A DNA stretch of 64,000 nt, from contig JBAZZW010000002.1 in NCBI GenBank assembly GCA_041658625.1, forward strand, positions 538,851 through 602,850, read 5' to 3'. Below are positions 4,611 to 64,000 of the stretch, in pieces. Numbering within the stretch: the stretch's first letter is position 1; the number at the start of each line of letters is the position of its first letter. Below the pieces are notes generated by a model. It was not told where the DNA came from. It was given only the letters and a program-made list of their open reading frames with translations, and did not search any database. Origin of the DNA: Actinomycetota bacterium. Its GTDB lineage: Bacteria > Actinomycetota > JAHEXW01. The translations under genes and the position numbers were made by a program.

Positions 4611-4634
4611 GGACACATTCCCGGGAATGTGTCC
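4611..4634. promoter_or_regulatory. 24-bp perfect palindrome GGACACATTCCCGGGAATGTGTCC (copy 1), between arsR-like gene and TadE-like gene
   Basis: Read directly; identical to copy 2 at 5041..5064; candidate operator or RNA hairpin. Confidence 0.5.
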
Positions 4635-5040: not shown

Positions 5041-5064
5041 GGACACATTCCCGGGAATGTGTCC
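5041..5064. promoter_or_regulatory. 24-bp perfect palindrome GGACACATTCCCGGGAATGTGTCC (copy 2), immediately upstream of arsR-like gene
   Basis: Read directly; exact duplicate of 4611..4634. Confidence 0.5.
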
Positions 5065-5070
5065 TTACTT

Positions 5071-5835
5071 TTAAAAACTTACACTTCCGGTGTCTTGGAG
5101 AGAACGTGCAAAAGGCAGTTCGGGGGCCTTCTGCCCGGTTTCATTTATGTTTACGCCACGGAATGAGTTAATCGGGATTTCAAAATAAACAGTTGCCGTT
5201 GAGCCGTCTATCGCGGTGATTTGGACATAGTGCGTGCCTTGACCGCCGAAATCATATTCGCCCCTGGCTGTTATGTTGTTTGATAGTTGCGGATCCGTGA
5301 ATTGTCCAGTCGCCAGCGTAACCGTGTAATGCGATCCGTTTCGATCCTGCCGCCCGACAACAGCGTACACTCGATAAGACTGGATTGGTTTGTTTGCGGA
5401 GAACGCGATATTTAGGTCTAGGTGGGCCGGTTCGTCATTTTGACTCTGCCGGCGCCCGTCTTCTGTTAAATAATGCCAGCGGGTAAAAACATACGGTGGC
5501 GACTTTGCCACAGAAACCGTCACCTGCAACGGTTCTGCCCAATACCCGCTGGCCGCCCACTCTTGATAGGTCTGCCAATATCCGCTTGCAACCCAGGTTG
5601 AATATGGCGCCCAAGCCCAGTAGCTTGTGTCCACCCACGTCCAGTAGCTCTTATCGTGCCATTGCCACCAAGCCCCGACCCAGCCGGCACCAGGGCAATA
5701 CACGTCGCTTCGATGCTTATGATACCCCCATGCATAAGCGAAATACATCGGCCCCCAATTCATGCCAATTAGGGAGTCATCCTGAGGAGCAGAAGAGATG
5801 ACTGGCGACGAGGGAACTCTCACGATTCTACTCAT
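5071..5835 (-). CDS. hypothetical protein with Trp/Tyr-rich repeats (SYW/GYW every ~8 residues) and a C-terminal beta-rich domain
   Basis: 254-aa longest ORF in the region; unusual composition; no family recognised. Confidence 0.4.
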   Translation of the reverse strand: MSRIVRVPSSPVISSAPQDDSLIGMNWGPMYFAYAWGYHKHRSDVYCPGAGWVGAWWQWHDKSYWTWVDTSYWAWAPYSTWVASGYWQTYQEWAASGYWAEPLQVTVSVAKSPPYVFTRWHYLTEDGRRQSQNDEPAHLDLNIAFSANKPIQSYRVYAVVGRQDRNGSHYTVTLATGQFTDPQLSNNITARGEYDFGGQGTHYVQITAIDGSTATVYFEIPINSFRGVNINETGQKAPELPFARSLQDTGSVSF

Positions 5836-6200
5836 TCAGCCACAATCGTGCCTTGAGAATCGCTGGACAGTGAGGCAATCGCTTATAGAATCATCCGAAT
5901 GCTTGCCGACAAGTTTAATCCGATGTTGGCTCCCCGGGTTGTATGTTTTTCGCACATTCCGAGCTTGCATAAGACAAACCGAGGTCGTCTTCGACGCATC
6001 TACGAAAAAGCATATCCTTAAAAATGCCAATTGCTGCTTCGTCAAAATACACGTTTTCACACCTTCTGCCCGATGCTGGGCAAGGAGGCAATAAAGAACT
6101 TGGACGCATTGATAAAAGAGAATAGCGAGAAATGCCTGGACGTTGCCTCATAGTAATTGGCTGCAAAATCGACAAACAGAACTTACATAATAATGCGAGG

Positions 6201-8945
6201 CTACTTGGGCGGTTTAGCTGCTTTCAGTCGTTGTACGGCCCACTCGTTTGAAAGATCAAGCGATTGGTTTAGCTCGAACGAGGTGTCAGCTCGTTTCTTC
6301 TCAGCATTTCGAACTTCTTTGACGGAATCGTAGAACTGTTTGCCAATCAGACGTTGTTTCTCAATTGGAATTACCGGTACTGGTATTGCTCCAAGATCAT
6401 CCCATTCAACGCGGTGTCTACTAATACCTGTGGATTGAGATAAAAGGCGGGCTCGGACTTCGGGGCTTCGAAGAAATCCCCATAAAAACCAAACATCGAA
6501 TCTTGCGTCCTTAAGTCGCATAATAGTAAACTCCGACGAGGCAATTACACCCGAGAGGTCAGCAGGAATCACGGCAATGGAACCGAGGGCAGCAGCAATG
6601 TTGCTTGCTACAATATCATTTTCTTTTGGGTTTTGAACTTTACTATATGTAAGTTCTTCTCCGAGCGCCTTATCGCCTTCCTCGGGGATTCCGTCATATC
6701 GAACACGCAGTAATGTGTTTAGTTTGCTAGGCTCGTTTTTCGGATTGAAGCCCTCATTTTCAATCTTGTCGACTATTGTGTGTAGGGGAACAACATTAAG
6801 GCCATCGGCACGCCATTTGTCAGAAATGTCATTTGGGCGGGGGAGACACGACTTAACATCAAGACGATCTCCAATAAGGCCGCTCCTGACCCGCCAAGGG
6901 CCCTTTATCCCCTGCATAAAAAGATTAAAAGCCTCAAAAAGGTCCCTAGTTTCGTCTTCAGCTGCGGTACGAGCTTCAGCTGCTTTACTAGGCCGTGTCT
7001 TCATGGGCACATCATCAAGGCCTACGTAGCGACATTCATACATAAAGGCATCCGGCTGACTTTGCTTTTTCGCGTCCCGCCGAATGAGGTATAGGACCGA
7101 TGTCTTTGCACGAGCTCCAACACGTTGAAATGCGTCCCCAGGGATACTGATTACGGCACGAACTATAAAGCGATCCCTTATAAAATCTCGTGCGAAACGA
7201 TTATTTGAGGAACTCAAGATTGAGTCGTCAATTACAGTTACGAGTTTACCGCCTGGCTTAAGAATGTCTGCATATCGTTCTAAGAACATAATGCTCGACT
7301 TTAATGATGGGCGTTGTCTATTTGTTTTCCCAAAGCCAAAGGTCCTTAGAGCGTACTGGTTGAGAATTAAAGCCTCGTCTGGCAGCGTCTCTGAGTAATC
7401 CATCGAGAATGGTGGATTTGTTAGAACGATATCGAAACCTCGTCTGCTTCCATTTGATATTTCGAAAATAAGTTTCTGAAGCTCTTCGAGCTCAAAACGC
7501 GATTGCTGATCATCTCCGACACCATGAGACACTGTCTTATCAAGGCTGTCCGCCGCATATATCCGGCTACCGCCGTCTCCATGGAGATACATGTTGATTC
7601 GTGAAATCTTTGCTAATGGTGGTTCTTTACCTGCATCAATGCCAAATATGGAATCGTTGGCGACCCTTTCTAACAAGGCGTTTTGTTCGCTGTCGCTCAG
7701 AGAAGTGTTAGATCGAATTTGATTCCGCATGTCGGTGAGGGCTTCAATAAGGAAGCCTCCTGAACCACAACAGGCATCAATTACATGGTCAATATGGTCT
7801 TTTGATGCAATTGGGGCAGCGAGTTGTTCCATCATTTTTACAATAGACCTGGGTGTAAAGTATTGCCCCAAGGCTTGTCCCCGCATGGTGGCACTTAAGA
7901 ACGTCTCAAACAAACGACCGTTAAGGTCCTCATCAATGCTGTACAAATCAAGTGATTCTAGTTTCGAGACAACTTGTCTGATTGTTCCTATCTGGAGTTC
8001 AATATGGTCATTTGGCCCAAATATCGGTTTCTTCTTTCCTCGGGCAACGTCCTCTCTAAGAACTTCATTAAGCCTGGCAAAAAGGGTCTCATCAACTGGA
8101 TTCTTTACCCCCTGTGACTGCAGAGCATCAATCCAATGCGTTGAGAAGATAACATTGTCCCGTGGTATTGGTTTCTCGTCTCGTAGTAAAGGCCCCATTA
8201 TGGGGTCATCGTGTAGTTTTCGATCCTCCCAAAGCTTTACGAACATTATTTTTACGAACTCAAAGAAAGCAGGTTGAGGATTCATCTTCTCAGCTTTCCA
8301 TATAAGTCTATGACAGCTGTTAAAAACCCTTTTGATCTCCTCAACAGAAGGCTTTTTCATTAGAAAGCGTGGCTTTTGTATCGAAGGCTTCAGGCCTTGC
8401 CTAATAGTAGTAGCCTGAAGTAACGAGCGTACCGAAAAGAAGCTTATGTTGTCATCAGCAAAGTCGGAAAATTCCAGGCTGATTATAGGCTTGCTCTCAT
8501 CCCATTTATAAAGGTCAAATGCGAGACCATTAGTTATTACGTAGTATGAACAGGGGTTTTGATTGCTAAACTCTTGATTAAGCCCTAACGCATATCCAGC
8601 ACCTTGAAAAGCCCACTTGTCGATATCTTCCCCTGGTGATTTTGCATCGATTAGCCACATAGGCTTCTCGTTACAGTAGATGACGTAATCTGGCCTATAG
8701 CCTTCTTTTTTTCTGCCTCTGGCTACAACAATCTCTTTAAGAGATACCTTTGGCCGGATTTCAGAGTCTTTGTAGCCGAGATCCTTTAGCAAACGATTTA
8801 TAAAGAATGTCTCGACTGAAGACTCATCAACTAAAACCGCTTTATCACAGTATTTGTTTGACTTCGCGTCCTTGCCAGCGCGACTCAAAGAGTCTAGGAG
8901 CGTAGGGCGAAGTAGGTCACTTTGCGGGGTTTTTGACTGTTTCAT
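6201..8945 (-). CDS. single-chain restriction-modification enzyme: PD-(D/E)xK nuclease + gamma-class N6-adenine methyltransferase + HsdS-like target-recognition domain (Type IIG-like)
   Basis: 914 aa; N-terminal RPDYVIYCNE...WLIDAKSPGE nuclease core; MTase motif I VIDACCGSGGFL then motif IV NPPF; C-terminal IPVPVIPIEKQRLI typical of HsdS TRD ends. Confidence 0.75.
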   Translation of the reverse strand: MKQSKTPQSDLLRPTLLDSLSRAGKDAKSNKYCDKAVLVDESSVETFFINRLLKDLGYKDSEIRPKVSLKEIVVARGRKKEGYRPDYVIYCNEKPMWLIDAKSPGEDIDKWAFQGAGYALGLNQEFSNQNPCSYYVITNGLAFDLYKWDESKPIISLEFSDFADDNISFFSVRSLLQATTIRQGLKPSIQKPRFLMKKPSVEEIKRVFNSCHRLIWKAEKMNPQPAFFEFVKIMFVKLWEDRKLHDDPIMGPLLRDEKPIPRDNVIFSTHWIDALQSQGVKNPVDETLFARLNEVLREDVARGKKKPIFGPNDHIELQIGTIRQVVSKLESLDLYSIDEDLNGRLFETFLSATMRGQALGQYFTPRSIVKMMEQLAAPIASKDHIDHVIDACCGSGGFLIEALTDMRNQIRSNTSLSDSEQNALLERVANDSIFGIDAGKEPPLAKISRINMYLHGDGGSRIYAADSLDKTVSHGVGDDQQSRFELEELQKLIFEISNGSRRGFDIVLTNPPFSMDYSETLPDEALILNQYALRTFGFGKTNRQRPSLKSSIMFLERYADILKPGGKLVTVIDDSILSSSNNRFARDFIRDRFIVRAVISIPGDAFQRVGARAKTSVLYLIRRDAKKQSQPDAFMYECRYVGLDDVPMKTRPSKAAEARTAAEDETRDLFEAFNLFMQGIKGPWRVRSGLIGDRLDVKSCLPRPNDISDKWRADGLNVVPLHTIVDKIENEGFNPKNEPSKLNTLLRVRYDGIPEEGDKALGEELTYSKVQNPKENDIVASNIAAALGSIAVIPADLSGVIASSEFTIMRLKDARFDVWFLWGFLRSPEVRARLLSQSTGISRHRVEWDDLGAIPVPVIPIEKQRLIGKQFYDSVKEVRNAEKKRADTSFELNQSLDLSNEWAVQRLKAAKPPK

Positions 8946-9354
8946 GTGTTCATTATCATTTGACGGAAGAACTGCGTCAAGGTTCGGCCAAACACTGTCC
9001 TATATAGCGGTCAAGTGACAGACAACTAGACAACCCATTGCTAGGCGCATTGTTCATAGAAAAGGTCAGCCAAGTAAGTTATTTAATTTCTATCTAATAA
9101 GCCATGGCAAAACCTCATCACTCTTCGGTAATCATAGAGAATGTTCGAAGACGCTCCGGCGGCCGCTGTCGCGTCACTGTAAAGTGTCAACAGAAACGGG
9201 GGAACTCCAACTCCAGTTTGTTGTTTATTGTAGCCGAGTGGGCTACGAGTCTTCTTCAAAAGAATATTCCATATACATAGCGTTTCCTCAGCTCTTGAGG
9301 TTTAGCACTTGAAAGTACATAATGAACCTAATCTTGTCTACTGGGGAGTTAATT

Positions 9355-11817
9355 ATGCCTTTGAAGATTAAGCTTAAGAATCAGTTTCGTGAGCCCCTCA
9401 ATACGGATGCGGGTTTCGTCGGTCGTGAAGACGAATTGGCGCGACTCATTACGATATTTCAGCAGAGGCAAGCCGCAACAGTCCTAGTCGCTGGACATCG
9501 AGGGGTAGGCAAGAGCGCACTGGTTGACGAGGCCTTAAAACGCTCGCAAGCCGACAAGAAAAAGCGCGTAGTTGCTCGATTGACGTTGCCCCATCTATCG
9601 CCCGGTAGTTCGGATATTCGAGATCAAATACTTCAATCGCTGGCGCGCTCGCTATATTTCTCTATCAAAGACGACAATAGCGTTCCAAAACCTCTTCGCG
9701 AAGTCAGCAAGGTTCTATATGATAAGACCTATTTGAAGGAACTACACGAGCAGACTGGGGTCGAGTCATTATTCGAAACCGAAGCTAAAGCCCGATCAGC
9801 GACAAAGACAAAGACTTCAATCGCTTTTGGCAAGATAGTTTCACTTATTGTCGGAACGTCGCTCTCTGGTGTGGTTGCTATCGGAGGAATCGCGGTTATT
9901 TCGAGAATCGTTACGGATCATGGCCTGAGTTGGGGAATAGTGGCTAGCGCTGTCGTGTTGGTTACGGTTGTGCTTTCAGCTTATCAACTTAATCTCGAAA
10001 AAGAGGATGAGAATACGACTATTGACAAGGCAACGGCTTCTAACAAGATAAACCGAATCGGTCTTTACGACGTATCTCCCGAGACCCTTGAATTTGAGCT
10101 TCGCGATCTTATAAAGGAGCTTGCAGCTAAAGGTCATCCTTGTGTCTTCGTGATTGACGAACTTGATAAGCTAGAGGCTTTTCCCAAAGGCGTTCAGCAG
10201 GACCCTGAAAGCGCTGGGCAGGATTTTAAAAAACACATCATATTCAGGATTTTGTCCAGTTTGAAAAACTTCTTTACATTGGGTTCTGGAATATTTGTGT
10301 TTATTTCAGGGGAAGATTTCTACGCCCAACTAAATGGACCCATTGAAACAGACATCTATTCGTTAGCTCATACCTTGTTCACTGATCAGGTTTTTGTTCA
10401 GGTTCTCTACTATCAGGACGTGGAGCGCTTGATTGAGCAGATTATTGCCGAAACGCCTGCGGACGAGGAGGAGTACCATCGCTTCAGGAACTATTTGTGT
10501 TGGCGCTCTCGAAATCATGTGTTTGATCTCTTATCACTCATCGGGGAATTTGTCAGATTTGATAATCGAGGCCAGCCATTTCTTTGGGGAGAGAAATCAG
10601 GAGCTCAGGACGGGCATTGGCATGAAGGCAATCTACCGACGAACTGGGAAGTTGCTGCTGCTCTGCAGAAAATAGTGGGGGCCGCTTATGATGAATCGGC
10701 GAGGCCGTCTGCTGGAGAGCAGCGTTTCAATCAAGCATTGTGGCTTACCCAACTGCGAACGGCCTATGATCTGTTCGCTGATATGCCCGTGAAGGTGCCA
10801 GAGGCTGGTTTTGAGTTGCCTGCTGCTTATGCCTGGGTAAAGAATCTAACGCCAAACGATCTTGATGACCTTGCTGGCGCAGTCGAGCGTCTGCTGGCTA
10901 AACTTGAGAGGTATGGTGCGGTAAGAGTAGTCTCGGAGACACTCACTCCCGAGACAGAAGGCCAGCCCGATGTCTCTGTGACTAGCTATACACTAGTTGA
11001 AAACCCACCTTATCCGCCCACGTCAGTCAACTCTGAAGTACAAAGAATCCCACTTGAGGATTATTATCTCGATATCGGGGCGAAAGCGGAGCACCTCGCA
11101 AAGAATCTATCCGTCTTGGGCATTGAGACACCGCAGTTATCCGATGAAATCAACGCTGTCGTCGATCTAATACTCGCAGTCAAGAACATTTCGCCACGAA
11201 ACACAGTACCGAGAAGCAGGGTCAAAGAAGGAATTAAACGAGCAGACGTTCTTGCCGAACAGATGGTCGAGACCGGCGTTAATGCAGTTATTACAAAATG
11301 GGCGGCGGATCACGGGATGCAGCTTAGTCAGGCACTTTCAGAAATTGAAAACAAAACTGGCACGCCCTGGCAAGACTCGCTTACCAGTGAGTTCCCAGAG
11401 TTTGTTGAGGCTTTGGACATAAGCGAGGTTGAATACTTCATCATCGGAGGTTCAACTTCCGAGAACCAGGTTTTAGTGCTGAATAATCGACGAGATCGTG
11501 ATTTGACGGCAGTAAGCGAGGCTTATTCAAAATCCTTGCCTGGTGAAAAGGGTCGCGATAGACGGAAACAACGTCTTCCGATAGTTGTAGTGAGCCAGTT
11601 GTCTCCCGGCAAAAATCCTCAGATTCCACGCGAAGTCGTTGAGGTTATCCAAGAAACCGAAGGTTGGTCTTTCTTCTCTGCCGTACTTGGACTTTTACCG
11701 AAAACGAAGAGAGTCAAAACGAATCTGGCAGGATGGACTGTCTTTTCTCTCGATCCTAGCTTGGATAATTTGGAAGACCTACCAGCTGAACTAGAAACGG
11801 TCTCATACATTACATAG
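9355..11817 (+). CDS. KAP-family-like P-loop NTPase with two TM helices inserted between Walker A and Walker B; ~550-aa uncharacterised C-terminal region
   Basis: Walker A VLVAGHRGVGKSAL (about 9484-9510), two hydrophobic helices (about 9814-9997), Walker B CVFVIDELDKLE (about 10135-10170). Start taken at ATG 9355 (GGGGAG RBS) rather than track start 9322. Confidence 0.65.
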   Translation: MPLKIKLKNQFREPLNTDAGFVGREDELARLITIFQQRQAATVLVAGHRGVGKSALVDEALKRSQADKKKRVVARLTLPHLSPGSSDIRDQILQSLARSLYFSIKDDNSVPKPLREVSKVLYDKTYLKELHEQTGVESLFETEAKARSATKTKTSIAFGKIVSLIVGTSLSGVVAIGGIAVISRIVTDHGLSWGIVASAVVLVTVVLSAYQLNLEKEDENTTIDKATASNKINRIGLYDVSPETLEFELRDLIKELAAKGHPCVFVIDELDKLEAFPKGVQQDPESAGQDFKKHIIFRILSSLKNFFTLGSGIFVFISGEDFYAQLNGPIETDIYSLAHTLFTDQVFVQVLYYQDVERLIEQIIAETPADEEEYHRFRNYLCWRSRNHVFDLLSLIGEFVRFDNRGQPFLWGEKSGAQDGHWHEGNLPTNWEVAAALQKIVGAAYDESARPSAGEQRFNQALWLTQLRTAYDLFADMPVKVPEAGFELPAAYAWVKNLTPNDLDDLAGAVERLLAKLERYGAVRVVSETLTPETEGQPDVSVTSYTLVENPPYPPTSVNSEVQRIPLEDYYLDIGAKAEHLAKNLSVLGIETPQLSDEINAVVDLILAVKNISPRNTVPRSRVKEGIKRADVLAEQMVETGVNAVITKWAADHGMQLSQALSEIENKTGTPWQDSLTSEFPEFVEALDISEVEYFIIGGSTSENQVLVLNNRRDRDLTAVSEAYSKSLPGEKGRDRRKQRLPIVVVSQLSPGKNPQIPREVVEVIQETEGWSFFSAVLGLLPKTKRVKTNLAGWTVFSLDPSLDNLEDLPAELETVSYIT

Positions 11818-11994
11818 CTATGTTGCCTAGCATTCTTACAACAGATTTCGAAACAGCAATGAAAACTATCGAGTGCATCTAATGTTCATCGAATAAGTCA
11901 CCGCAAAACTCCGCTACTCCTCGTTAATCACAGAGTACTCTCTTTAAAGACAATCCGCAGACAAGGACAGCCATCGGGTGATATAGTAATACAT

Positions 11995-12059
11995 TGTTGG
12001 TTGCGCTGGAGGGACTACGAATCCGTAGGTTGGAGGTTCGGCTCCTCTCGGGCGCGCCA
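11995..12059 (+). other. tRNA-like 3' fragment (T-arm-like GGAGG-TTCGGCT-CCTCT, acceptor-like CGGGCGC, G, CCA); no matching 5' acceptor strand
   Basis: Read directly; antisense ORF 11924..12130 translates to the RSRTSNLRIRSP-type peptide typical of tRNA-derived DNA. Possible degenerate tRNA or integration-site remnant. Confidence 0.25.
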
Positions 12060-12161
12060 CATCTCACCTGGGCAACAGATGATGATTTCTTTAATTGACA
12101 AGGTATTATCTGGGGCAATCTAATACTCATCTAATATTGATTGTCGCCGACAAGGAAGGCA

Positions 12162-13028
12162 ATGATATACAAAGGCTTGTACTCTCAGCGCAAGAAAATA
12201 AACCCTGATGAAGATGTTTTTTCATATTCGCTCCCTGCCCCAGTAAGAGCTGCAATATTTAATATTATTAAAAACACCAATCCGAATTGGTCATCTCACG
12301 GCAAAACCCGAAGGCCTTTAAAGGCCATTGTTAAGGATTTTTGTGAAAATCATTTATTTCACGGGATTACACCAAGAGCAGAAGACGCTTTTGCATCTGG
12401 GTACCAATACGCCGACCACCAACTTACCGATGACCTTAAGGCATGGATCCAAACGACTCCACAAGAATCTTTGTTTGATTTTATTGAAGTAGCAATTATT
12501 AATATGAGCGAGTCTAATTTAACGACGCTTGTTAAAGATATTAATGATTTGTTTCAAAGGGAAATGATTGGATTTGAGATTGTAAACGGAAACATTATTG
12601 ACAAGTCTGATGAATTCCTTCATCAAGAAGTTGTTCTGCAGCCAATTCTTGGGCTAAAAGCAGGAGGATTTGAAAAAGCCGAACAAGACTTCATGAAGGC
12701 ATTGCAGGAATATGCCCACAAAGATTATGCGGGAGCCCTTACAAGTGCTAATACTGCGCAGGAAAGCGTTATGAAGAGGATTCTTGGAGTCGAAAAAGGT
12801 GTGTCAAGTGATTTGGTTAAGACATTAGTTGAAAGGGGCATAATCCCTTCATATATGCAGAATAAAATGTTACTGCCCGTTTCGATAAGAAACAAAGATA
12901 GCGACGCACACGGCAGGCTTGATCCAATTGACGTCACGCCGGAACTAGCTCAATACGCGATTCATTGTGTCGGGGCTAATGTTGTGTTCTTGCTCAAAGT
13001 TACGAATATGGACGGCACCCAACAATAG
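12162..13028 (+). CDS. hypothetical protein with C-terminal HEPN-like Rx6H motif (candidate abortive-infection/RNase-type effector)
   Basis: ATG 12162 preceded by AAGGAAGG RBS (track start 12141 is TTG); C-terminal SIRNKDSDAHGRLD fits the HEPN Rx4-6H motif; AT-rich gene. Confidence 0.45.
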   Translation: MIYKGLYSQRKKINPDEDVFSYSLPAPVRAAIFNIIKNTNPNWSSHGKTRRPLKAIVKDFCENHLFHGITPRAEDAFASGYQYADHQLTDDLKAWIQTTPQESLFDFIEVAIINMSESNLTTLVKDINDLFQREMIGFEIVNGNIIDKSDEFLHQEVVLQPILGLKAGGFEKAEQDFMKALQEYAHKDYAGALTSANTAQESVMKRILGVEKGVSSDLVKTLVERGIIPSYMQNKMLLPVSIRNKDSDAHGRLDPIDVTPELAQYAIHCVGANVVFLLKVTNMDGTQQ

Positions 13029-13070
13029 CTGTTTATCGGTTTTGGGTTTCTCGTTTTTAGGAATAATTGC

Positions 13071-13118
13071 AACCAGACTCATAATCCGCGGCAAGTTCGA
13101 GTCCTGCTGTGTTCCCCA
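13071..13118 (+). other. second tRNA-like 3' fragment (CTCATAA loop-like segment, T-loop TTCGAGT, terminal CCCA); no 5' acceptor strand
   Basis: Read directly; GGCAAGTTCGAGTCCTGC resembles a T-arm; lies just downstream of the HEPN-motif gene. Confidence 0.25.
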
Positions 13119-13192
13119 AACAGGAGCTAATAAAAAGGCCGACTCCAATAAACAGACGTCTCTTCTCCTATTAGTTCATGTTTATCGCCTTG

Positions 13193-13591
13193 CTATTTCA
13201 AAGATCGCGCCCTTTGCGAGGCGACATATTCTTCTAGGTCGCTTTTCTGTACTCTCCACGACCCCGCTCCAGCGCCAATCCTGAAGCCTAGCAAGAGCTT
13301 CTTGTTTAGCATGTCGTAGACCTGCGCCTCAGAGAACCGCAACAGCTTGGCGACCTCGCTGACTGTCAGCAAACGATTAGGGTCAGCCATCTTGGCGGCT
13401 TCTTTTTCCGCCGCCTTTTCGTGATACTTTCTGGCGTCCTCGGCGTTAATGAACTTACGCCGGCCGAAGCGAGTGGTCCGGAATTCCCCGCGGCGCATCA
13501 TCTTGCGAACCGTGTTCGGCTCCATTTGTAAAATCTCCGCAACTTCCTCAACACTTATATATCCCGTTTTGTTAGACATATTCATGACCAC
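13193..13591 (-). CDS. DNA-binding protein with two tandem excisionase-type HTH domains
   Basis: 132 aa; YISVEEVAEILQMEPNTVRKMMRRGEF and LLTVSEVAKLLRFSEAQVYDMLNKK are both HTH_17-like. Confidence 0.6.
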   Translation of the reverse strand: MVMNMSNKTGYISVEEVAEILQMEPNTVRKMMRRGEFRTTRFGRRKFINAEDARKYHEKAAEKEAAKMADPNRLLTVSEVAKLLRFSEAQVYDMLNKKLLLGFRIGAGAGSWRVQKSDLEEYVASQRARSLK

Positions 13592-13650
13592 TTTCGTTTG
13601 CTTCAGTCTTCCGTTATCTTCATATATATCAACAATATATCATATTTCAT

Positions 13651-14472
13651 TTAACTTGTTACTAATCCGCCGTAGCCAACGACACTCGCCGTATCCATGC
13701 TGAAGTCGGCGCTGGTCGCGTACTTAATTAGCTCCGCCTTGGTGGCGCCCAGTTCTTTGGCCGCGTATAGCATGATCGCCACAGGTCCTACTCCGCACAT
13801 AGTGATGTCGTTTTCATAGACGGTCTGAAGCAGAAATTCCGGATCCAAGGCCAGAATCGCGTCTATCGCCAGCTTGTCCAATGATTCGGCAACCGATAAA
13901 GGCTCATAATGGGTGAAATCAGTCGATGCGACGATTAAGACGTCTTCTTTTTCCTGACGGATCGCCTCCGCGATGGCGTGCCCAACCTCCCGGTAGACGG
14001 TTATGTCAGGGAGTCCCTTAATAGCAACCGGCACGAAGGTAAAGTCATTACCGGTTATCACCTGCAGGAAGGGCAACTGAACTTCAACGGAATGCTCCAG
14101 CCGATGAGCGTCATAGCTGACTTTGATGTTCTTGCTGTTGGCCATCATACGCGCGGCCAGCGCTTCGTCTATGTCTGCGTTTCCCAGTGGGGTCTTCCAG
14201 GTCCCCGTGTCTTCGATTGAAATCGGGAAGCCGAACCCTGAGTGATTAGGCCCGATAACAATAAACCGTTTTGGAGGCTCGATCGCTCCATATACGCTGC
14301 CGGCAACCGGGCCGGAATATTCGTAACCCGCGTGAGGAACGACGATCCCTTTGGCTTTTACTTTCGACTCTCGCTCGGCTTGTGCCTTTAGAAGCTTCTT
14401 GACGTCCCTTGTCAGCCCTTCTTCGTAACCCAAGTAGAACAGTCCGGCCGCGTAAGGTGTCCGCTTATTCAT
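13651..14472 (-). CDS. AmmeMemoRadiSam system protein B (MEMO1-family)
   Basis: 273 aa; motifs VVPHAGYEYSG, HSVEVQLPFLQ, STDFTHY, CGVGP. Confidence 0.85.
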   Translation of the reverse strand: MNKRTPYAAGLFYLGYEEGLTRDVKKLLKAQAERESKVKAKGIVVPHAGYEYSGPVAGSVYGAIEPPKRFIVIGPNHSGFGFPISIEDTGTWKTPLGNADIDEALAARMMANSKNIKVSYDAHRLEHSVEVQLPFLQVITGNDFTFVPVAIKGLPDITVYREVGHAIAEAIRQEKEDVLIVASTDFTHYEPLSVAESLDKLAIDAILALDPEFLLQTVYENDITMCGVGPVAIMLYAAKELGATKAELIKYATSADFSMDTASVVGYGGLVTS

Positions 14473-18146: not shown

Positions 18147-18471
18147 TATGATCAGCAAATATATTTGGCCCCTCACCTCAATCCTCTCCCCGGAGGGGAG
18201 AGGCAGTAACAAAACTCGAGCACCTATTCTGCGAGTCAAGACTGAGGGTGGGCGGGAGCCTCGAACATGGGTTTCCTTGAAGTTTTTCGCGCCGCCAGCC
18301 GCCGATTAATATAAAGGATCGAGCATGCGGACATTCCACGACTCGAGCGGAGAGCATTGTTTGCTCGCCGTGGCGACCTGAAACACGGGGTCAGGCCCTA
18401 TCTCATAAGAAGAAAGGGCCTGACCCCATAGCACTAACGATGGTAGGCCGCGAGCGGCATGCTCGTCTATT

Positions 18472-22941: not shown

Positions 22942-22984
22942 CTTCTCGATTCCCTCGCTGCCACTCGCTCACTCGAAGAATATT
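22942..22984 (-). repeat. 43-bp conserved intergenic element (copy 1), 8 nt upstream of psd start
   Basis: CTTCTCGATTCCCTCGCTGCCACTCGCTCACTCGAAGAATATT; 41/43 identical to 24670..24712; shares AATATTCTTCGAG(T/C)GAGCG with 59915..59933. Confidence 0.5.
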
Positions 22985-24669: not shown

Positions 24670-24712
24670 CTTCTCGATTCCCTCGCTGACGCTCGCTCAC
24701 TCGAAGAATATT
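24670..24712 (-). repeat. 43-bp conserved intergenic element (copy 2), 16 nt upstream of scpB start
   Basis: CTTCTCGATTCCCTCGCTGACGCTCGCTCACTCGAAGAATATT; near-identical to 22942..22984. Confidence 0.5.
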
Positions 24713-24742
24713 TACTAACTACTAACCACTAACTGCTAACAG

Positions 24743-24784
24743 CTCTTGGCTCTTGGCTCTTGGCTCTTGGCTCTTGGCTCTTGG
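24743..24784. repeat. heptanucleotide tandem repeat (CTCTTGG)x6, preceded by TAAC-rich reiterations (24712..24740)
   Basis: Read directly in the 135-bp scpA-scpB spacer. Confidence 0.7.
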
Positions 24785-24789
24785 CTATT

Positions 24790-31516: not shown

Positions 31517-32482
31517 CTATTCCCTTCTTCCCTTGATGTTTGCTCTTGGATGCGTGCTCATGTATTCCTCTTTCAGGTGATCCTTGGCCACGTGCGTATA
31601 GACCTGCGTCGTCGAGATCGAGGCGTGGCCTAACATCTCCTGAACCGCGCGCAGGTCGGCGCCTCCTTTAAGCAGATGCGTAGCGAAACTGTGTCGCAGC
31701 GTATGTGGCGTCAACTCCGGAAACCCGGCTTTGCCTCCCTGATTCTTTATCGTCTTCCACATTGTCTGGCGGCTCAAGCCGCGCCCTTGTCTGTTCAGAA
31801 ACAGATGATCGTCGCGAGTCTTTCCGACGAGTTTTGGACGGCCGCTCATCAGGTATTTCTGCACCGCTCTGACCGCCGTTCCGCCGACCGGAACCAGACG
31901 TTCTTTTGAACCTTTGCCGAATACCCTCACGAACCCCTCTTCCGAGTCCAGGTCGCCCATTGTCAAGCCCGCCGCCTCGGAAACGCGTAAGCCGCTCGCG
32001 TACATAAGCTCCAGGATGGCCTTATCTCGCCAGCCCCGTGGCGTTTCCGGAAAGTCTCCGTCAAGCAGCTTGGCCACGTCCTCTATTGATAAAACCCTTG
32101 GCAGACGTTGGCTTTTTTTAACGTTAGCCACCGTTGCCATCGGATCGTTTGTTTGATAACCCTCTCTGACCAGGAACTTGAATAAGCCTCGGATAGCCGC
32201 GTGAGCCCTTCCGACCGACGCGGCGTTTAACGGAGTCCCTTCGGCCGTAAACGCTCCGTCGGCTAGTTCCCGGGAGTAGTCCAGGATATGCGTCTTAGTC
32301 ACGTCCGAGAAATCGGTTATGCCCGCGCGCCCCAACCAGCGCATGAAGTTATTCAAATCAAGGGCATACGCTGAGGCCGTATTCTTGGCCAGACCTTTCT
32401 CCACCGAAAGAAAATTAAGGTACTCTCCGGCTTGGGCGGCCAGCTCCGGCGGGACCGGCAATTCTTTATTTCTCCCGTCCAC
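31517..32482 (-). CDS. xerD: site-specific tyrosine recombinase XerD
   Basis: 321 aa; C-terminal HTLRHSFATHLL...LGHASISTTQVYTHV with catalytic Tyr; downstream of NUDIX gene as in Actinobacteria. Confidence 0.85.
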   Translation of the reverse strand: MDGRNKELPVPPELAAQAGEYLNFLSVEKGLAKNTASAYALDLNNFMRWLGRAGITDFSDVTKTHILDYSRELADGAFTAEGTPLNAASVGRAHAAIRGLFKFLVREGYQTNDPMATVANVKKSQRLPRVLSIEDVAKLLDGDFPETPRGWRDKAILELMYASGLRVSEAAGLTMGDLDSEEGFVRVFGKGSKERLVPVGGTAVRAVQKYLMSGRPKLVGKTRDDHLFLNRQGRGLSRQTMWKTIKNQGGKAGFPELTPHTLRHSFATHLLKGGADLRAVQEMLGHASISTTQVYTHVAKDHLKEEYMSTHPRANIKGRRE

Positions 32483-33020: not shown

Positions 33021-33043
33021 AGTATACTCTCCGCTCTCTGGTC

Positions 33044-34132
33044 TTAGCTCTTAGCTCTTTTGATCATCTTCGCAGCGACATATCCCGCGGCGCCGGCCGC
33101 CCGGAAAAATTCAGGCTCTTCTTTAAACCCTCGCTTCATGGTCGATGGCTTCAGGTCGAACATGTCCAACGCTTCCTCGGTATTGTCGCCCGCAATTATG
33201 GCAATCCTGTGTTTAGCGGCCAGCCCCGACATATTCATTTTCATCATGACCGCTTCGTGTTTGGAAGTGTCCATCCTGGGAATCGGGACATCGCAGGTTA
33301 CCAGCGCCGCCAGCCCTAACGCGGCCACCGTTTGATCGCTAAGCCCTTGATGGCGGGCTCTTTTATCGGCAAAGTTGAGGCGCGGAATAGCGATCGGCCG
33401 GCCGCGCATCGCGGCCACCGCATTGACTATCTCGCCCTGTTCTATCCCTGAAAAACCCAAAAAGGTCTCTGTGCCCGCCACGCCGACGCCCATCGTCACA
33501 ATGGCCGCCTCCGCTCCGCCTATCGCCTTGGCGGCCGCCAGGCCGCTGAAGACGTTTACGGCCTCCAGGTCGCCGCCGAAGGCTTGTCCCGTTGTGACCG
33601 TAATATCGATCAGTTCTTTCCGTTTCAGATGCCGAACCTGTTCGCTCAAAGCCATCGGCAGAGCCGCGCGGTCAGTCATTATATAGGCGAGTTTTTTATT
33701 CATGCCCGCCTGTTTCTTGAAAACCGCGGCTGCCGGGCCGAGCTGGCTGTGGAGCGTACCGACTATTACCGGCATACCAAAAAGGTCTTTGAAATCGCGC
33801 AGCTTATCCATGTTGCCGGCGGTTTGTTCCTCAGCCGCCAGGACGTTTAACTGAAGGGGCGAGTAACGGAGCTTCATGATATGCCCGTCGGCAGGCAGGT
33901 CCAGGTCGCCATGCTTTAGGTTCCACACTACGAAATGCCAACCGCCGCTCCCCAGGGCAAGTTCGCCGGCGGTTGTATTTATGATAACCTCGTCGCCGGC
34001 GGCGACCGGTCCGGTAAGATCGGGATAGGCGATAGCTTTAGCCTCCTCGCCTGACGTCTCCACGACAAGTCTGATTATGCCTTTTTCGTCCGCGAGGATA
34101 TTCTTCACTGTCGCTTTGCGGTAAGAGGCCAT
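33044..34132 (-). CDS. conserved hypothetical protein (possibly DUF3866-like)
   Basis: 362 aa; continuous ORF, no motif I can name confidently. Confidence 0.5.
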   Translation of the reverse strand: MASYRKATVKNILADEKGIIRLVVETSGEEAKAIAYPDLTGPVAAGDEVIINTTAGELALGSGGWHFVVWNLKHGDLDLPADGHIMKLRYSPLQLNVLAAEEQTAGNMDKLRDFKDLFGMPVIVGTLHSQLGPAAAVFKKQAGMNKKLAYIMTDRAALPMALSEQVRHLKRKELIDITVTTGQAFGGDLEAVNVFSGLAAAKAIGGAEAAIVTMGVGVAGTETFLGFSGIEQGEIVNAVAAMRGRPIAIPRLNFADKRARHQGLSDQTVAALGLAALVTCDVPIPRMDTSKHEAVMMKMNMSGLAAKHRIAIIAGDNTEEALDMFDLKPSTMKRGFKEEPEFFRAAGAAGYVAAKMIKRAKS

Positions 34133-36717: not shown

Positions 36718-36964
36718 TCACCCTTCTGACCCCATTAAGGCCACAAACGGTTTTTTACATTATAGCCATAATTAGCTCTTAAATGTAGACATTTATTGCG
36801 TCATCCTGGGCTCGCGTCATGCGAACAGTCATCTTGGGGCTGCGGTTTGCAGCCGCAAGAACTAAGACGCTACTTACTTTACCAACTAAACTCGTGCCCT
36901 GTAGGACAGAAACATAATTCAGCTAAAATCGTGCATGGTGGATCGCTTTAACAAGAGATGCGTC

Positions 36965-40413: not shown

Positions 40414-40443
40414 TACTCTCTGCTCTCCGCTCTTTGCTCTCGG

Positions 40444-41229
40444 CTATTGCCCCGGTTCCGGCGTGTTCACTTGTACGTGAACGTGCGGCGTCGGAGGTTT
40501 CACGTAATCGTCAAGCTCCGAGGCAAAATACGGGCGCCAGTCACGAGGAATCCCCATAACGGTTTTCCCCTGCTTCACCTTATCGCCCGGTTTGACCTTG
40601 ATTTGATCTATATGCAAGAACGCCACCCGGACGTTTGGCAATCCGTCCGGCACCACTTCCACTTGCAGGTCCTCGAATTCTTCGTAGATGACTTTCGATT
40701 CGATTTTTATGACCGTCCCGCTGACCGGGGCCAAAACCGGTGTGCCCGGGTCCATGGCGATGTCGGCCACGGTCGTGCCGTACGCATATTCGCCGCGAGT
40801 CTCCATTATATAATACGTCGGAAGTTGAGCCTTACTATCGAGCGACACGTCTACGTCCGAGCCGTTGTCGTTTATAAGACACTGCCCGATCGGCGTCAGG
40901 GAATAAGCCCGCAAATGGCTTGATTCATGGTACCCGATGCCCCGAATGTTCTTATACGGGGCATATAGGTATAACGTCAGCCCGAGTTCCGGCACGGTCG
41001 CGAACGGTAGAATCAGTTTTGATGTCCGCTTTTTAGCGGTGTCGGTGGCCGTTTCTATGGTGTCTGAGGCCGGCTTGATCGTCATGGCCGATTTGACCGC
41101 TTTGGCGGCCCAGGCGGAACGGGCGACTCTGGTCACCGTCCAGGCTCCGGCAACCAGCGCAAGCACGACGACCGCGCCTAGTGCCCAATACAACGACCAG
41201 ATCCGGAAGTGTTCTCTGACGGGGTTCAT
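40444..41229 (-). CDS. hypothetical membrane-anchored protein (possibly metallopeptidase-like)
   Basis: 261 aa; N-terminal TM helix, extracytoplasmic domain; no confident family. Confidence 0.45.
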   Translation of the reverse strand: MNPVREHFRIWSLYWALGAVVVLALVAGAWTVTRVARSAWAAKAVKSAMTIKPASDTIETATDTAKKRTSKLILPFATVPELGLTLYLYAPYKNIRGIGYHESSHLRAYSLTPIGQCLINDNGSDVDVSLDSKAQLPTYYIMETRGEYAYGTTVADIAMDPGTPVLAPVSGTVIKIESKVIYEEFEDLQVEVVPDGLPNVRVAFLHIDQIKVKPGDKVKQGKTVMGIPRDWRPYFASELDDYVKPPTPHVHVQVNTPEPGQ

Positions 41230-42881: not shown

Positions 42882-43706
42882 TTACTTCTTCTCCAGCGCC
42901 TCATGCGCCTCATCAACAACCTTTTTGATACGAGTCTCGATTTCCAGCTCTTTGCTCTCCGCTCTCCGCTCTCCGCTACTTTGCTTCATCCAGGCCAAGA
43001 ATTCTATGTTCCCCTCGGCCCCGGTCACGGGCGAATAGGTCAATCCCATAAGCCTTAATCCGCGGCCGTTCAAACGCGAAATCACGTCCGCGAGTATCTC
43101 TTCGTGCCGGGAAGCCTCCCTTATTATACCGCCTTTGCCGACCTTGCCTTTACCGGCTTCGAACTGGGGTTTTATTAGAAAAATAAAATCCGCGTCTGGC
43201 TCGCTTAGACTAACCAAAGCCTCCGCGACCGTAACCAAAGATATGAACGACAGATCGGCCGTTATAACCTCGGCTTTGGCGGGCAGGTCTTCGGATGTAA
43301 GGTGACGGACGTTGGTCCTTTCCAGAACCAGCACGCGCGGGTCTTGCCTGAGCTTCCAGGCCAGCTGGCCGTAACCGACGTCTACGGCCATGACGCTGGC
43401 AGCCCCGCGCTCAAGCAGGACTTCGGTGAAGCCTCCCGTTGAGGCGCCGGCGTCCAGAGCGACGCGTCCCTTAACCTCAAGGTCGAAAACATCCAGCGCC
43501 CTGTTTAGTTTGTCCGCGCCTCGCGACACATACGCGTTATCAGGCTCGACATAAACAGAAGCCCGGTTATCCGTAGCGGCTCCGGGCTTATCGGCGATAT
43601 TGTTTTCGATTCTAACCCGCCCGGCCATGATGGCCCGGCGCGCTTTCTCCCTGCTCTCAAAGATGCCCCGCTCGACCAGCAGGGCATCCAGCCTCATCTT
43701 AGTCAT
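42882..43706 (-). CDS. tlyA: TlyA-family rRNA (cytidine-2'-O)-methyltransferase
   Basis: 274 aa; N-terminal S4 domain (RLDALLVERG) and FtsJ-like MTase domain (LDAGASTGGFT). Confidence 0.85.
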   Translation of the reverse strand: MTKMRLDALLVERGIFESREKARRAIMAGRVRIENNIADKPGAATDNRASVYVEPDNAYVSRGADKLNRALDVFDLEVKGRVALDAGASTGGFTEVLLERGAASVMAVDVGYGQLAWKLRQDPRVLVLERTNVRHLTSEDLPAKAEVITADLSFISLVTVAEALVSLSEPDADFIFLIKPQFEAGKGKVGKGGIIREASRHEEILADVISRLNGRGLRLMGLTYSPVTGAEGNIEFLAWMKQSSGERRAESKELEIETRIKKVVDEAHEALEKK

Positions 43707-59453: not shown

Positions 59454-59675
59454 ATGAAGAGCACATTTACTGCTGTTTTCGAGAAAACGGACGATTGGTA
59501 TATCGGCTATGTCGAAGAACTTCCTGGTGCCAACTCACAGGGAAAAACTCTTAACGAGGCGCGCGAAAACCTAAAGGAAGCTATAGAGCTTACCCTCAAA
59601 TCTAACCGCGAGATTGCCGAACGCGGCCTAACGGGCAAAAAGGTAATCAGGGAATCCATTCAGATAGCCGTCTAA
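59454..59675 (+). CDS. hicB: HicB-family antitoxin
   Basis: 73 aa; FEKTDDWYIGYVEELPGANSQGKTLNEARENLKEAIEL resembles HicB/UPF0150; -10 box only 7 nt upstream of ATG (leaderless-like). Confidence 0.65.
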   Translation: MKSTFTAVFEKTDDWYIGYVEELPGANSQGKTLNEARENLKEAIELTLKSNREIAERGLTGKKVIRESIQIAV

Positions 59676-59864
59676 ATGAAAAGGCGCGCTCTGCTAGCCC
59701 ATCTTAAGAAGCACAACTGCGTCCTGTTAAGACAAGGCGCACGTCATTCTGTGTTCATCAACACCGCGAACAATAAAGTCTCGACCGTCCCCCGACATTC
59801 TGAGATTGTCGATCTTCTTGCTAAGAAGATTTGTCGCGACCTCGAAATCCCCGCCCCTCTATAA
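59676..59864 (+). CDS. hicA: HicA-family toxin (mRNA interferase)
   Basis: 62 aa; LKKHNCVLLRQGARHSVFIN...HSEIVDLLAKKICRDL fits HicA/YcfA-like fold; start abuts hicB stop. Confidence 0.7.
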   Translation: MKRRALLAHLKKHNCVLLRQGARHSVFINTANNKVSTVPRHSEIVDLLAKKICRDLEIPAPL

Positions 59865-59988
59865 AAACATACCCTCTCCACTCAAGAACCCCCCCCTTTT
59901 TTTTGAGCTCGCAAAATATTCTTCGAGCGAGCGCTAATTACGAGCTTGCCCTGAGCTAGTCGAAGGGTCGAGAAGGGAGGGCGCCGCT

Positions 59989-60159
59989 CGCTGGACAAAC
60001 CCGGCTATGCTCTTTAATATTGTTTAAGTGCGAATACGGGTGATTAGCTCAGGGGGGAGAGCGCTTCCCCTGACACGAAACTCGTGTACCATGCCCAAGC
60101 CCCATCTCATCTGCAGGTATAACACTCTTTTGGAATCCGCCGTCGCTATGTAAGTGCAC
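59989..60159 (+). repeat. ~170-bp direct repeat, copy 1 (contains tRNA D-arm-like TAGCTCAGGGGGGAGAGCGC)
   Basis: Aligned by eye with copy 2 at 62542..62710; high identity over most of its length with a few indels. Confidence 0.6.
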
Positions 60160-60333
60160 AAAAAGCGAGCAATTGGAAGTTTGTCAATTGGAAGATTCCG
60201 AATCAGGCTTCTTTTTCGTTGCCGCTTCTTCTTCCTCGCGTTCCCATTTGGGCTTGATTCAATTCGGGACCTTGAACATCGTGAAGATTGCTAGGAAGAC
60301 GACAACTTGCCAATCTTAGTCTTGGATATTGCC

Positions 60334-60657
60334 TTAGACTACACGCTTGTAATATTTGAAACTCCCTCCAGTTGAAAGTATTGACCCCATCCAAGTACGT
60401 CGGTCGATTCCTGCTAATTCTTCATCACTTCTTGATGCCAAGTCGTCATACATCGCATAACCGAACAAAAATAGATACGATAACCCAAAACCGGCTGTAA
60501 ACGCAAACAAAGTAAAGAAAAGTGTTTCTATTGCGTCAGTTTTGTTCATCGCCATGAGAATTAAGACCACAGCAGCAATAATTGATGCTACGATGAGCGA
60601 GATTGTTCTCACGCGCTTTTGGAGTTTGCTGATTTTCATATTCGTATCATATTTCAT
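60334..60657 (-). CDS. small two-TM membrane protein, immunity-like (downstream of RHS remnant)
   Basis: 107 aa; start overlaps the RHS-fragment stop by 4 nt; two hydrophobic helices. Confidence 0.45.
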   Translation of the reverse strand: MKYDTNMKISKLQKRVRTISLIVASIIAAVVLILMAMNKTDAIETLFFTLFAFTAGFGLSYLFLFGYAMYDDLASRSDEELAGIDRRTWMGSILSTGGSFKYYKRVV

Positions 60658-61023
60658 ATTGCCCTAGTCTTCCCTTTATAATCCACACCTCGGCCGTTAC
60701 CGTGAATTGCAGAGGAGTTATTCCCGCAATAGAGATAAGGATTGAGCGCCAACCTGTCCGTCGCCTGCTGCGGCATAGCGTCCCGGGAGATGAACCTGCC
60801 GGTCGCAGGATTGTAATACCTGGCGTTTAAGTAATACATCCCGGTCTTGTTACCTGGGGTCAGGCCCTGTCGCTTAAGAGGAGAGGGCCTGACCCCAAAG
60901 CCGACCCAATGGATTCCCGAAGGTGCCTGTCGCAACGATATTCTTGGCTGTCAAGTTGCTTCCGTCCCAGACCCAGGCATATTCCGTCGGGTTCCCCCGG
61001 GCGTCATAAGCCCAGCTCCGTCA
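60654..61023 (-). pseudogene. RHS/YD-repeat protein C-terminal remnant (frameshifted), ending in a short C-terminal tip
   Basis: ORF 60654..60935 encodes MYYLNARYYNPATGRFISRD...NPYLYCGNN (RHS core end); upstream a different frame encodes YDARGNPTEYAWVWDGSNLTAKNIVATG; no intact N-terminal RHS body. Confidence 0.55.
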
Positions 61024-61202
61024 TGGCGTCATCCTGGGCTCCGTGTCTTCTAGGAGCGCAGGAACTCAGACGCTGCTATTCATTCAAGTATAATCGTGCC
61101 CTGAGAGTCAAGACCTTGCCGCCAAGACATCCCCATGATTATTCAAAACACAATAATGAGTGATCCAGTACTTGACTTTTCACATGCAATATTGCATTAT
61201 GA

Positions 61203-62453: not shown

Positions 62454-62541
62454 CGACTCTTTGGCTTATCTTAAAAGTTCACTTCGATTTGGGGAATATC
62501 TTATAGATTTCTGACACCGCTATGTTCGCGAAGGATTTGCC

Positions 62542-62710
62542 CGCTGGACAAACAAGCCTATGCTCTTTAATATTGTTTAAGTGCGATTACGGGTGATTAG
62601 CTCAGGGGGAGAGCGCTTCCCTGACACGGAATTCGTACACTGACTTCATTCCCCTTCCCATCTGCAGGTATAACACTCTCTGGGAATATATAGCGCGTCC
62701 GTAAGTGCAC
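62542..62710 (+). repeat. ~170-bp direct repeat, copy 2
   Basis: Aligned by eye with 59989..60159; followed at 62738..62793 by a tail element that also occurs at about 5925..5980. Confidence 0.6.
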
Positions 62711-62909
62711 CGTAAGTGCTATTGAGGTAACAAAAAAGCTGGCTTCCCGGGTTATACGTTTTTCGCACACTTAGGATTTTGCATAAAGCCAGCTGAGAGT
62801 GGCTTCTTGTTGCATACGGGGGCGTAGATCACGCAAATCCGGGCGCCGACGCCGTAAAAACCTTACGCTTCACAACCTGGCCTTATAGGCAAGAAAGGGC
62901 ATTTAAACG

Positions 62910-63887: not shown

Positions 63888-64000
63888 TGTCGTCTCCTAT
63901 CACAACCCACTTCACGGGAATCCGGACTTCTGGCTTATCCCCTTTTGGGGAATCTCACCTTAAGAGCCGATTAAGCTGGCTCCGCAATCATTGCAGAACT

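Follow-up and report, generated by a model that had tools for sequence, protein, structure and literature searches.

The left border of a defence island

The stretch under study, 5861-5980, is part of a window of 64,000 nucleotides and is situated within a 7.4-kb defence island, about 100-220 nt from its left end. At this end the island has a non-coding border of 440 bp (5758-6200), a mosaic of unrelated short repeats made up of a copy of a repeat that we call M, a promoter-like site and a module referred to as the block. The features of this region, with the island genes assigned by domain matches, are the following.

5071-5757, minus strand: 5'-truncated remnant of an ancestral conserved gene of ~350 aa (349 aa)
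5758-13202: defence island, 7.4 kb, delimited by the synteny breaks at 5757 and 13203
5761-5862, plus strand: M, copy A (nhmmer E=1.4e-24), starting 3 nt from the island junction
5863-5891, plus strand: sigma-70-like site, CTGGACA-N16-TAGAAT (10/12 matches), pointing toward the block and containing CGCTGGACA
5927-5972, plus strand as written, with somewhat better structure on the minus strand: block, copy A, with the ~47-nt conserved core TGGCTCCCCGGGTTGTATGTTTTTCGCACATTCCGAGCTTGCATAA
5971-5991, plus strand: hairpin directly 3' of block copy A, AAGAC-N11-GTCTT, read from the sequence and from folds
6201-8945, minus strand: N6-methylase/type IIG-like gene
9322-11817, plus strand: STAND/KAP-like ATPase gene
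12141-13028, plus strand: AbiJ-like/PDC-S32 gene

The ancestral gene order was read from two syntenic relatives, L035 (GCA_040960625.1, ~80% nucleotide identity) and L039, which both display the succession ComM, DprA, Memo, TadE, CpaE-like, HTH_17, CpaF, TadB, TadC, Flp, DUF5666, the 349-aa protein, ArsR-like, Tad and PilMNO. Nucleotide homology to these relatives ends at 5757 and restarts at 13203, and 5758-13202 can therefore be considered as an island that stands in place of tad genes, the 5' end of the 349-aa gene having been lost. Compared with L035 and L039, the genes lost to the island are CpaF, TadB, TadC, Flp and DUF5666, together with the 5' third of the 349-aa gene, of which a 254-aa ORF (5071-5835) remains; its orthologues have 331-376 aa, and its first ~25 residues are non-homologous. 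The island is flanked by the HTH_17 protein. TadE and the CpaE-like gene, located between Memo and HTH_17 in the relatives, are also missing (window 13571-13660). The junction at 5757/5758 bears out the statement of an earlier note on this DNA that 5861-5980 marks the left edge of the island.

A strain of the same species that is free of the island was sought; all retrieved same-species contigs carry the island, and the border sequence is identical among them. No direct repeats were found between the island ends (5758-6200 and 13029-13202) by BLAST of the window against itself, and no block-like or other repeat was found at the right end. The promoter-shaped site of the 5863-5891 type occurs once in the window, where 0.02 are expected. 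At the right border, 13070-13118 resembles the 3' half of a tRNA-Met/Ile(CAT), with a CTCATAA loop, a T-loop GTTCGAGTCC, an acceptor strand and CCA. This likeness is weak (E=0.5 in a BLAST search against phage tRNA-Met genes, with no Rfam match and no matching 5' half), and a BLAST search of the right junction against phage and plasmid collections returned weak tRNA-Met matches only, at 13069-13120.

The block is a short intergenic repeat

The earlier note had stated that 5925-5980 matches the tail that follows the second copy of a 170-bp repeat (R170) near the right end of the window, and this match is fully supported. In a local alignment, block copies A and B agree at 83% of 47 nt and differ in length by a single 1-nt indel; the score of 52 was reached by 0 of 500 shuffles (mean 16.7, sd 2.2, maximum 27), and BLAST of the window against itself gives the pair E=4.5e-5. 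A 24-nt core, CCCGGGTTNTANGTTTTTCGCACA, occurs in the window in copies A and B only, with 0 occurrences expected. Copy B is the sole partner of copy A in the window and is found 57 kb away, with about 30 kb of core genes in between. The idea that one 57-kb element includes both copies was considered and rejected, as its interior consists of core genes: the ~30 kb of housekeeping genes between the copies exclude a single large element. The known copies besides copy A are:

62740-62786, plus strand: block, copy B, placed by alignment to copy A, with a hairpin next to it at 62786-62805
L022 948-993: block, copy C, detected by a pattern scan and BLAST, 91% identical to copy A over 34 nt and 87% identical to copy B over 46 nt

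L022 is a stretch of a related landfill-metagenome contig at JGI, Ga0265292_1000002 (968 kb), the sample being IMG 3300028032, a landfill (SWC) metagenome (bioRxiv 10.1101/2024.05.30.596742). L022 was retrieved by scanning JGI metagenomes with a pattern in which variation was allowed solely at third codon positions. This codon-degenerate pattern returned two stretches, L023, which is locus A itself, and L022 with the new copy, a yield from which no copy number can be inferred since the collection missed the contig known to carry copy B. The similarity of copy C reaches beyond the search pattern, and copy C is therefore considered genuine.

All three known copies, two in the window and one on L022, are intergenic. 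They display a sharp left edge at TGGCT, while on the right side the similarity fades past GCATA. The hairpin that follows copy A has equivalents after copy B (AAGCCA-N8-TGGCTT) and after copy C (AAGAC-N7-GTCTT). We describe 5927-5991 as one copy of a lineage-specific, non-coding intergenic repeat of ~50-65 bp, which is composed of the ~47-nt core and a hairpin.

Chance similarity of copies A and B, with no common origin, could draw on a scan of species-representative genomes (GTDB set, 596 Gb), in which the relaxed pattern CCGGGTTNNNNGTTTTTCGCAC gave 20 unrelated matches, about the number expected by chance for 18 fixed bases; none of the 20 has shared flanks, and several are ordinary terminators. 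Against this stand the window-level E value, the shuffles and the independent copy C with its similarity past the search pattern, and the chance reading is effectively refuted. No block copy was found in the species-representative genomes scanned, nor, with an nhmmer profile, in 36 kb of syntenic sequence from the two relatives, so that the family may be very small. Likewise, nhmmer profiles revealed no further copies of the block, M or R170 in ~14 kb beyond the window ends, the CCGGGTTNNNNGTTTTTCGCAC pattern and an R170 pattern had no match in viral contigs, and BLAST of the block against phage and plasmid collections gave no match.

The block is distinct from the 170-bp repeat

The earlier note had presented the whole of 5861-5980 as a short relative of R170, which occurs twice at the right side of the window and encloses a segment that varies between strains:

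59986-60166, plus strand: R170, copy 1, with the block absent after it
60034-62586: strain-variable segment of 2,553 bp between the R170 copies, absent from contig L024
62539-62739, plus strand: R170, copy 2, with a promoter-like site, a tRNA-Val(GAC) 5' half and TAAGTGC repeats, ending at the left edge of the block

Both R170 copies possess the promoter-like sequence TGGACA-N17-TAATAT. Their tRNA-Val part comprises the acceptor, the D arm and the anticodon arm with GAC, with no recognisable 3' half, and is flanked at both ends by TAAGTGC direct repeats. It was recognised through Rfam (tRNA, 23.6 bits, E=0.088) and through BLAST matches to phage tRNA-Val genes (E=1e-5), while ARAGORN was negative on R170; tRNA-Val matches were also all that R170 returned in BLAST searches of the phage and plasmid collections. 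The core of the tRNA-Val 5' half, GGGTGATTAGCTCAGGGGG, has two matches in the window with three mismatches allowed, both of them the known R170 copies, and no tRNA-like match was found in 5700-6250 at E<=10.

The pairwise alignment that the earlier note had proposed divides the stretch in two, the tail being far above chance and the head at chance level. Concerning the head, the 9-mer CGCTGGACA that had been taken as the start of the 170-bp repeat is indeed present at 5861-5869, as it is at 59989-59997 and 62542-62550, but homology does not follow from it: the best local alignment of 5855-5924 with either R170 copy consists of the 9-10-mer alone, and of 1000 shuffles 74-231 score as high. Two further occurrences of the 9-mer, at 9489 and 23141, fall within coding regions. 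Its three intergenic sites have in common the shape of a sigma-70-like promoter, TGGACA-N16/17-TAGAAT or TAATAT. As for the tail, its description as the sequence following the repeat holds at copy 2 and fails at copy 1. The similarity between the R170 copies runs ...GTAAGTGCAC...AAAAAGC and ends immediately before the TGGCT with which block copy B starts; since R170 copy 1 lacks the block, the latter adjoins the 170-bp repeat without belonging to it. With no collinear similarity and no tRNA-Val core in 5861-5980, the assignment to the R170 family is not upheld, and the flagged stretch is a separate module, not a truncated 170-bp repeat.

A strain-variable segment between the R170 copies

The 2,553-bp segment carries an orphan RHS C-terminal fragment (60654-60935, minus strand), a 107-aa ORF, a copy of M (61021-61117) and a DUF4143 ATPase gene, the product of which matches PADLOC PDC-S01 (E=7.9e-115). 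As a defence candidate, PDC-S01 is unvalidated, although very common and often transferred horizontally (PMC12988326). No homologues of the segment's ATPase above 63% identity were found outside this organism. The idea that PDC-S01 ATPase genes at other loci neighbour tRNA genes or are enclosed by direct repeats was discarded after two loci had been examined, neither of which showed this arrangement.

L024, an ENA contig (ERZ27247322) of the same species with 99.7-99.8% identity to the window, displays the order HicB, HicA, one hybrid repeat, block and 325-aa gene, and is devoid of the 2,553 bp. The hybrid repeat has its left flank from R170 copy 1 and its right part from copy 2, with the crossover inside an identical 28-bp core, TATGCTCTTTAATATTGTTTAAGTGCGA (60006-60033 and 62559-62586). 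Block copy B, which lies 150 nt outside this crossover, is unchanged in L024. As the R170 copies are 85% identical and the strains only ~0.2% apart, we favour a recent RecA-type deletion over the 28-bp core, or an exchange of the pre-existing two-copy arrangement, as the probable origin of the difference, which may also be an assembly collapse. The recombination in this window would have occurred in the 170-bp repeats and not in the block.

The proposal that repeats bound the accessory regions is therefore to be retained in part: the R170 copies do bound a present/absent segment, and the block is not R170. Because the block lies outside both the repeat and the variable segment and is kept unchanged in L024, there is no single element family that marks the boundaries of both accessory regions, as had been suggested.

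Left of R170 copy 1, 59454-59870 encodes a HicB-like antitoxin (UPF0150), followed by a short HicA-like ORF (~62 aa, MKRRALLAHLKKHNCVLLRQGARHSVF...), which is too short for the ORF-length cut-off that was applied to the window. Past the window end at 64000, positions 1-9800 of L024 encode ~13 tandem zinc-ribbon (DZR/Zn_Ribbon_1) paralogues, which continue from the 325-aa gene at 62910-63887.

A possible 3'-flank module beside accessory genes

The three block copies have the same orientation to their right-hand neighbour, which is in each case an accessory gene on the minus strand, and are located 25-230 nt past its stop codon. This gene encodes the methylase at copy A (208 nt), a zinc-ribbon/TPR protein at copy B (124 nt) and, at copy C (25 nt), the HEPN toxin of a HEPN/nucleotidyltransferase pair. 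Read on the minus strand, the block would form a two-tier hairpin, in which UGUGCG-AAAAA-CRUAYA is enclosed within an outer stem of 4-5 bp and preceded by a second hairpin. The inner 6-bp stem UGUGCG/CRUAYA is kept in all copies via G-U pairs, which on the plus strand are A-C mismatches. Copy B possesses an additional closing stem of 8 bp, GCTGGCTT/AAGCCAGC (also read as GCUGGCUU/AAGCCAGC), followed by UUUUUU, and would thereby have the shape of an intrinsic terminator; copies A and C are without the U-run. Compared with shuffled sequences, the minus-strand folds of copies B (-29.6 kcal/mol, z=-2.07) and C (z=-2.00) are more stable, whereas the plus-strand folds of B and C are not better than shuffles (z=+0.17 and -0.85).

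Based on the terminator shape of copy B and on the minus-strand folds, the block may be a hairpin or terminator-like module of the 3' flank of accessory genes, a reading that we hold at a probability of roughly 0.5. Such a module would act as a terminator or as a hairpin stabilising the 3' end, and might have been copied together with accessory genes when these were moved or duplicated, the block then being a marker left by gene traffic and not its agent. Several observations fit this reading poorly: copy A is not folded more stably than its shuffles on the minus strand (z=-0.03) or on the plus strand, the 208 nt that separate it from the stop codon of the methylase gene are a long way for a terminator, and the minus-strand RNA model leaves the third-position substitutions in the first 33 nt of the block unexplained. 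With only three copies known, the function is one that we infer, and covariation is nearly uninformative (one compensatory pair, consensus energy -8 kcal/mol). In favour of the reading, a simple scan of the minus strand with a loop limit of 3-8 nt detected no terminator between the neighbour genes and the block.

Rfam gave no match over the whole window at the gathering score and nothing over the block at E<=10, which led us to reject a tRNA-like or group II intron-like nature of the block. A promoter inside the block was likewise dismissed, no promoter-like site being present there.

The substitutions just mentioned raise the question of a coding relic, namely a 12-codon fragment, WLPGLYVFRT[L/F]R, of a mobile-element gene that was duplicated with its element. 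All substitutions in the first 33 nt of the three copies are at third positions of this plus-strand frame (5927-5962, 62740-62775 and L022 948-983), and none of the copies interrupts it. In the unbiased comparison of A with B, 3/3 differences in the first 30 nt are at third codon positions, and copy C adds a third-position difference at 33, outside the search pattern. The chance probability of this substitution pattern is, however, only about 0.01-0.04, and the pattern by which copy C was found varied at third positions only. The frame has no start codon, and in copy B a stop lies four codons upstream; the A/B alignment needs its 1-nt indel right after codon 11, no protein-level similarity extends past 12 residues, and a peptide search, run with a chimeric query for called ORFs over other block copies, gave no match at E<=10. 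A coding relic is consequently regarded as quite improbable. Transcription of the plus strand offers another explanation, in which a small RNA would start at the promoter-like site upstream of the block, namely 5863-5891 for copy A and that of R170 for copy B, converge into the 3' end of the defence gene and regulate it as an antisense or 3'-end RNA. The promoter-shaped plus-strand sites upstream of A and B are strong, and a plus-strand hairpin follows the block in 3/3 copies; copy C, on the other hand, has no upstream promoter-like site, promoter and block are separated by 35 nt at A but by 165 nt at B, the intervening sequences being unrelated, and the plus-strand folds and Rfam give the RNA no support. 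We consider a small RNA unlikely.

The role in mobilisation or recombination that the earlier note had attributed to the element corresponds to a recombination or attachment site, the block, maybe with M and R170, serving as the target of a recombinase acting in trans or as a homology patch for the exchange of defence cassettes. This would agree with the position of all three copies next to defence or toxin-antitoxin genes, of copy A within 170 nt of the mapped island junction, with the sharp left edge, and with the neighbouring R170 copies that bound the strain-variable segment. Yet the right end of the island carries no such repeat and its ends no direct repeats, no integrase or transposase gene is located in or beside either region, the block copies are merely 83-91% identical, and block copy B stayed outside the R170 crossover and unchanged in the insert-free strain. 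The sole tyrosine recombinase of the window (31517-32482, Phage_integrase) has a Phage_int_SAM_1 N-terminal domain and is located among core genes, and therefore looks Xer-like. Among the 5700-6250 sequence, the search for ends of a MITE or IS element yielded only a 12-nt inverted pair of 83% identity, and no transposase was found among the annotated ORFs of the window. The integron attC site was rejected as an identity of the block, since the RYYYAAC/GTTRRRY cores, sought 45-150 nt apart on both strands, are absent from all three block loci. The companion repeat M also occurs upstream of the core gene pyrG. None of these results connects the block with mobilisation, and a recombination site appears rather unlikely. 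A more far-reaching version, in which M, block and R170 would be the junction modules of an unrecognised cassette-exchange system for defence genes of this landfill lineage (PDC-S01 ATPase, type IIG-like methylase, AbiJ, HEPN/MNT) that operates without integron integrase and attC, R170 providing the crossover and the block the 3' boundary, is judged very improbable.

In comparison with these alternatives we retain the 3'-flank module. The block is an ordinary passenger sequence, with no sign of moving DNA itself. The outcome is mostly a correction, in that the flagged stretch should count neither as a member of the 170-bp family nor as evidence for mobilisation. Its by-products are an exactly mapped replacement of tad-pilus genes by the 7.4-kb defence island, a 2,553-bp present/absent polymorphism with a PDC-S01 candidate bounded by promoter-plus-tRNA-Val-5'-half repeats, and a few intergenic modules, specific to this lineage, which are concentrated at these borders. 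If it is true that such modules delimit strain-variable defence cassettes genome-wide, they would provide a handle on the exchange of defence genes in an uncultured lineage.

Comparison with known repeat systems

REP/BIME sequences, such as the BIMEs of E. coli, and the pneumococcal BOX elements are short (<150 bp), non-coding, hairpin-forming intergenic repeats that are often found after gene 3' ends or between convergent genes. The block resembles them in being short, non-coding and intergenic, with more than two dispersed copies (three), and its surroundings resemble them in the combination of separate modules in various ways, as seen here for M, block, R170 and a 24-bp palindrome. The likeness is one of description, as we know of no sequence similarity to the REP/BIME or BOX families. 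The block differs from them by its three known copies versus tens to hundreds, by its weak palindromic character and by its apparent confinement to one lineage of landfill metagenomes. Miniature elements of the Correia/ERIC type supply promoters or terminators to neighbouring genes, and the block likewise belongs to a small repeat beside genes with promoter- and terminator-shaped features; in contrast to these elements, there are no terminal inverted repeats and no target-site duplication around it.

Attachment-site remnants in the form of tRNA fragments, which flank genomic islands mobilised by integrases, are resembled by the tRNA-Val 5' half of R170 and by the weak tRNA-Met-like 3' half at 13070-13118, both at accessory borders. 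The differences are that the block is not tRNA-like, that no integrase is present, that the island ends are without matching direct repeats and that R170 carries 5' halves with a promoter instead of the usual 3' halves. With integron attC sites the block shares the form of an imperfect hairpin of 50-90 bp, in fixed orientation downstream of accessory or defence genes that look promoterless, but neither IntI nor a cassette array is present.

Repeat M and other short modules

M was found by BLAST of L022 against the window and is a new repeat family named here. Besides copy A at 5761-5862, copies are located at 36814-36945, at 61021-61117 and, on the opposite strand, at L022 858-718 (nhmmer E 1e-24 to 1e-36). 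In M, GTCATCCTGGG is followed by a hairpin, variable in sequence but compensated in its stems, and then by CGCAGGAACTCAGACGCTGC...TATAATCGTGCCCTGAGA (also read as CGCAGGAACTCAGACG...TATAATCGTGCCC). Two M copies abut 5'-truncated minus-strand genes, while the copy at 36.8 kb lies upstream of pyrG among core genes, so that M is not confined to accessory DNA. M adjoins the block both at copy A and on L022 but is inverted between them, which shows M and block to be independent modules. A BLAST search of M against the phage and plasmid collections gave no match. M also contains GGAACT-N16-TYCARS, a candidate sequence reminiscent of ECF-sigma promoters.

Several hairpin repeats are also common to the window and L022. 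A perfect 24-bp palindrome, GGACACATTCCCGGGAATGTGTCC, is present at 4611-4634 and 5041-5064, on both sides of the ArsR-like gene, and at L022 436-459, whereas the syntenic loci of L035 and L039 lack it; it might serve as an operator or terminate transcription in both directions. Positions 18387-18432 and 60856-60901 are two copies, 87% identical, of a hairpin repeat of 46 nt, GGGGTCAGGCCC...GGGCCTGACCCC, one site adjoining a PIN/RHH toxin-antitoxin region and the other being located within the strain-variable segment. The short repeat CTTCTCGATTC...CTCGAAGAATATT was found at 22942-22984, 24670-24712, 59915-59933 (reverse complement) and L022 623-646, with one copy directly upstream of R170 copy 1. 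An intergenic stretch of 65 nt shows 86% identity between 18213-18275 of the window and L022 517-581. Finally, runs of the 7-nt units CTCTTGG/CTCTCCG are located at 24729-24787, 33027-33057, 40416-40446 and 42934-42992, at or between the ends of genes of the core region.
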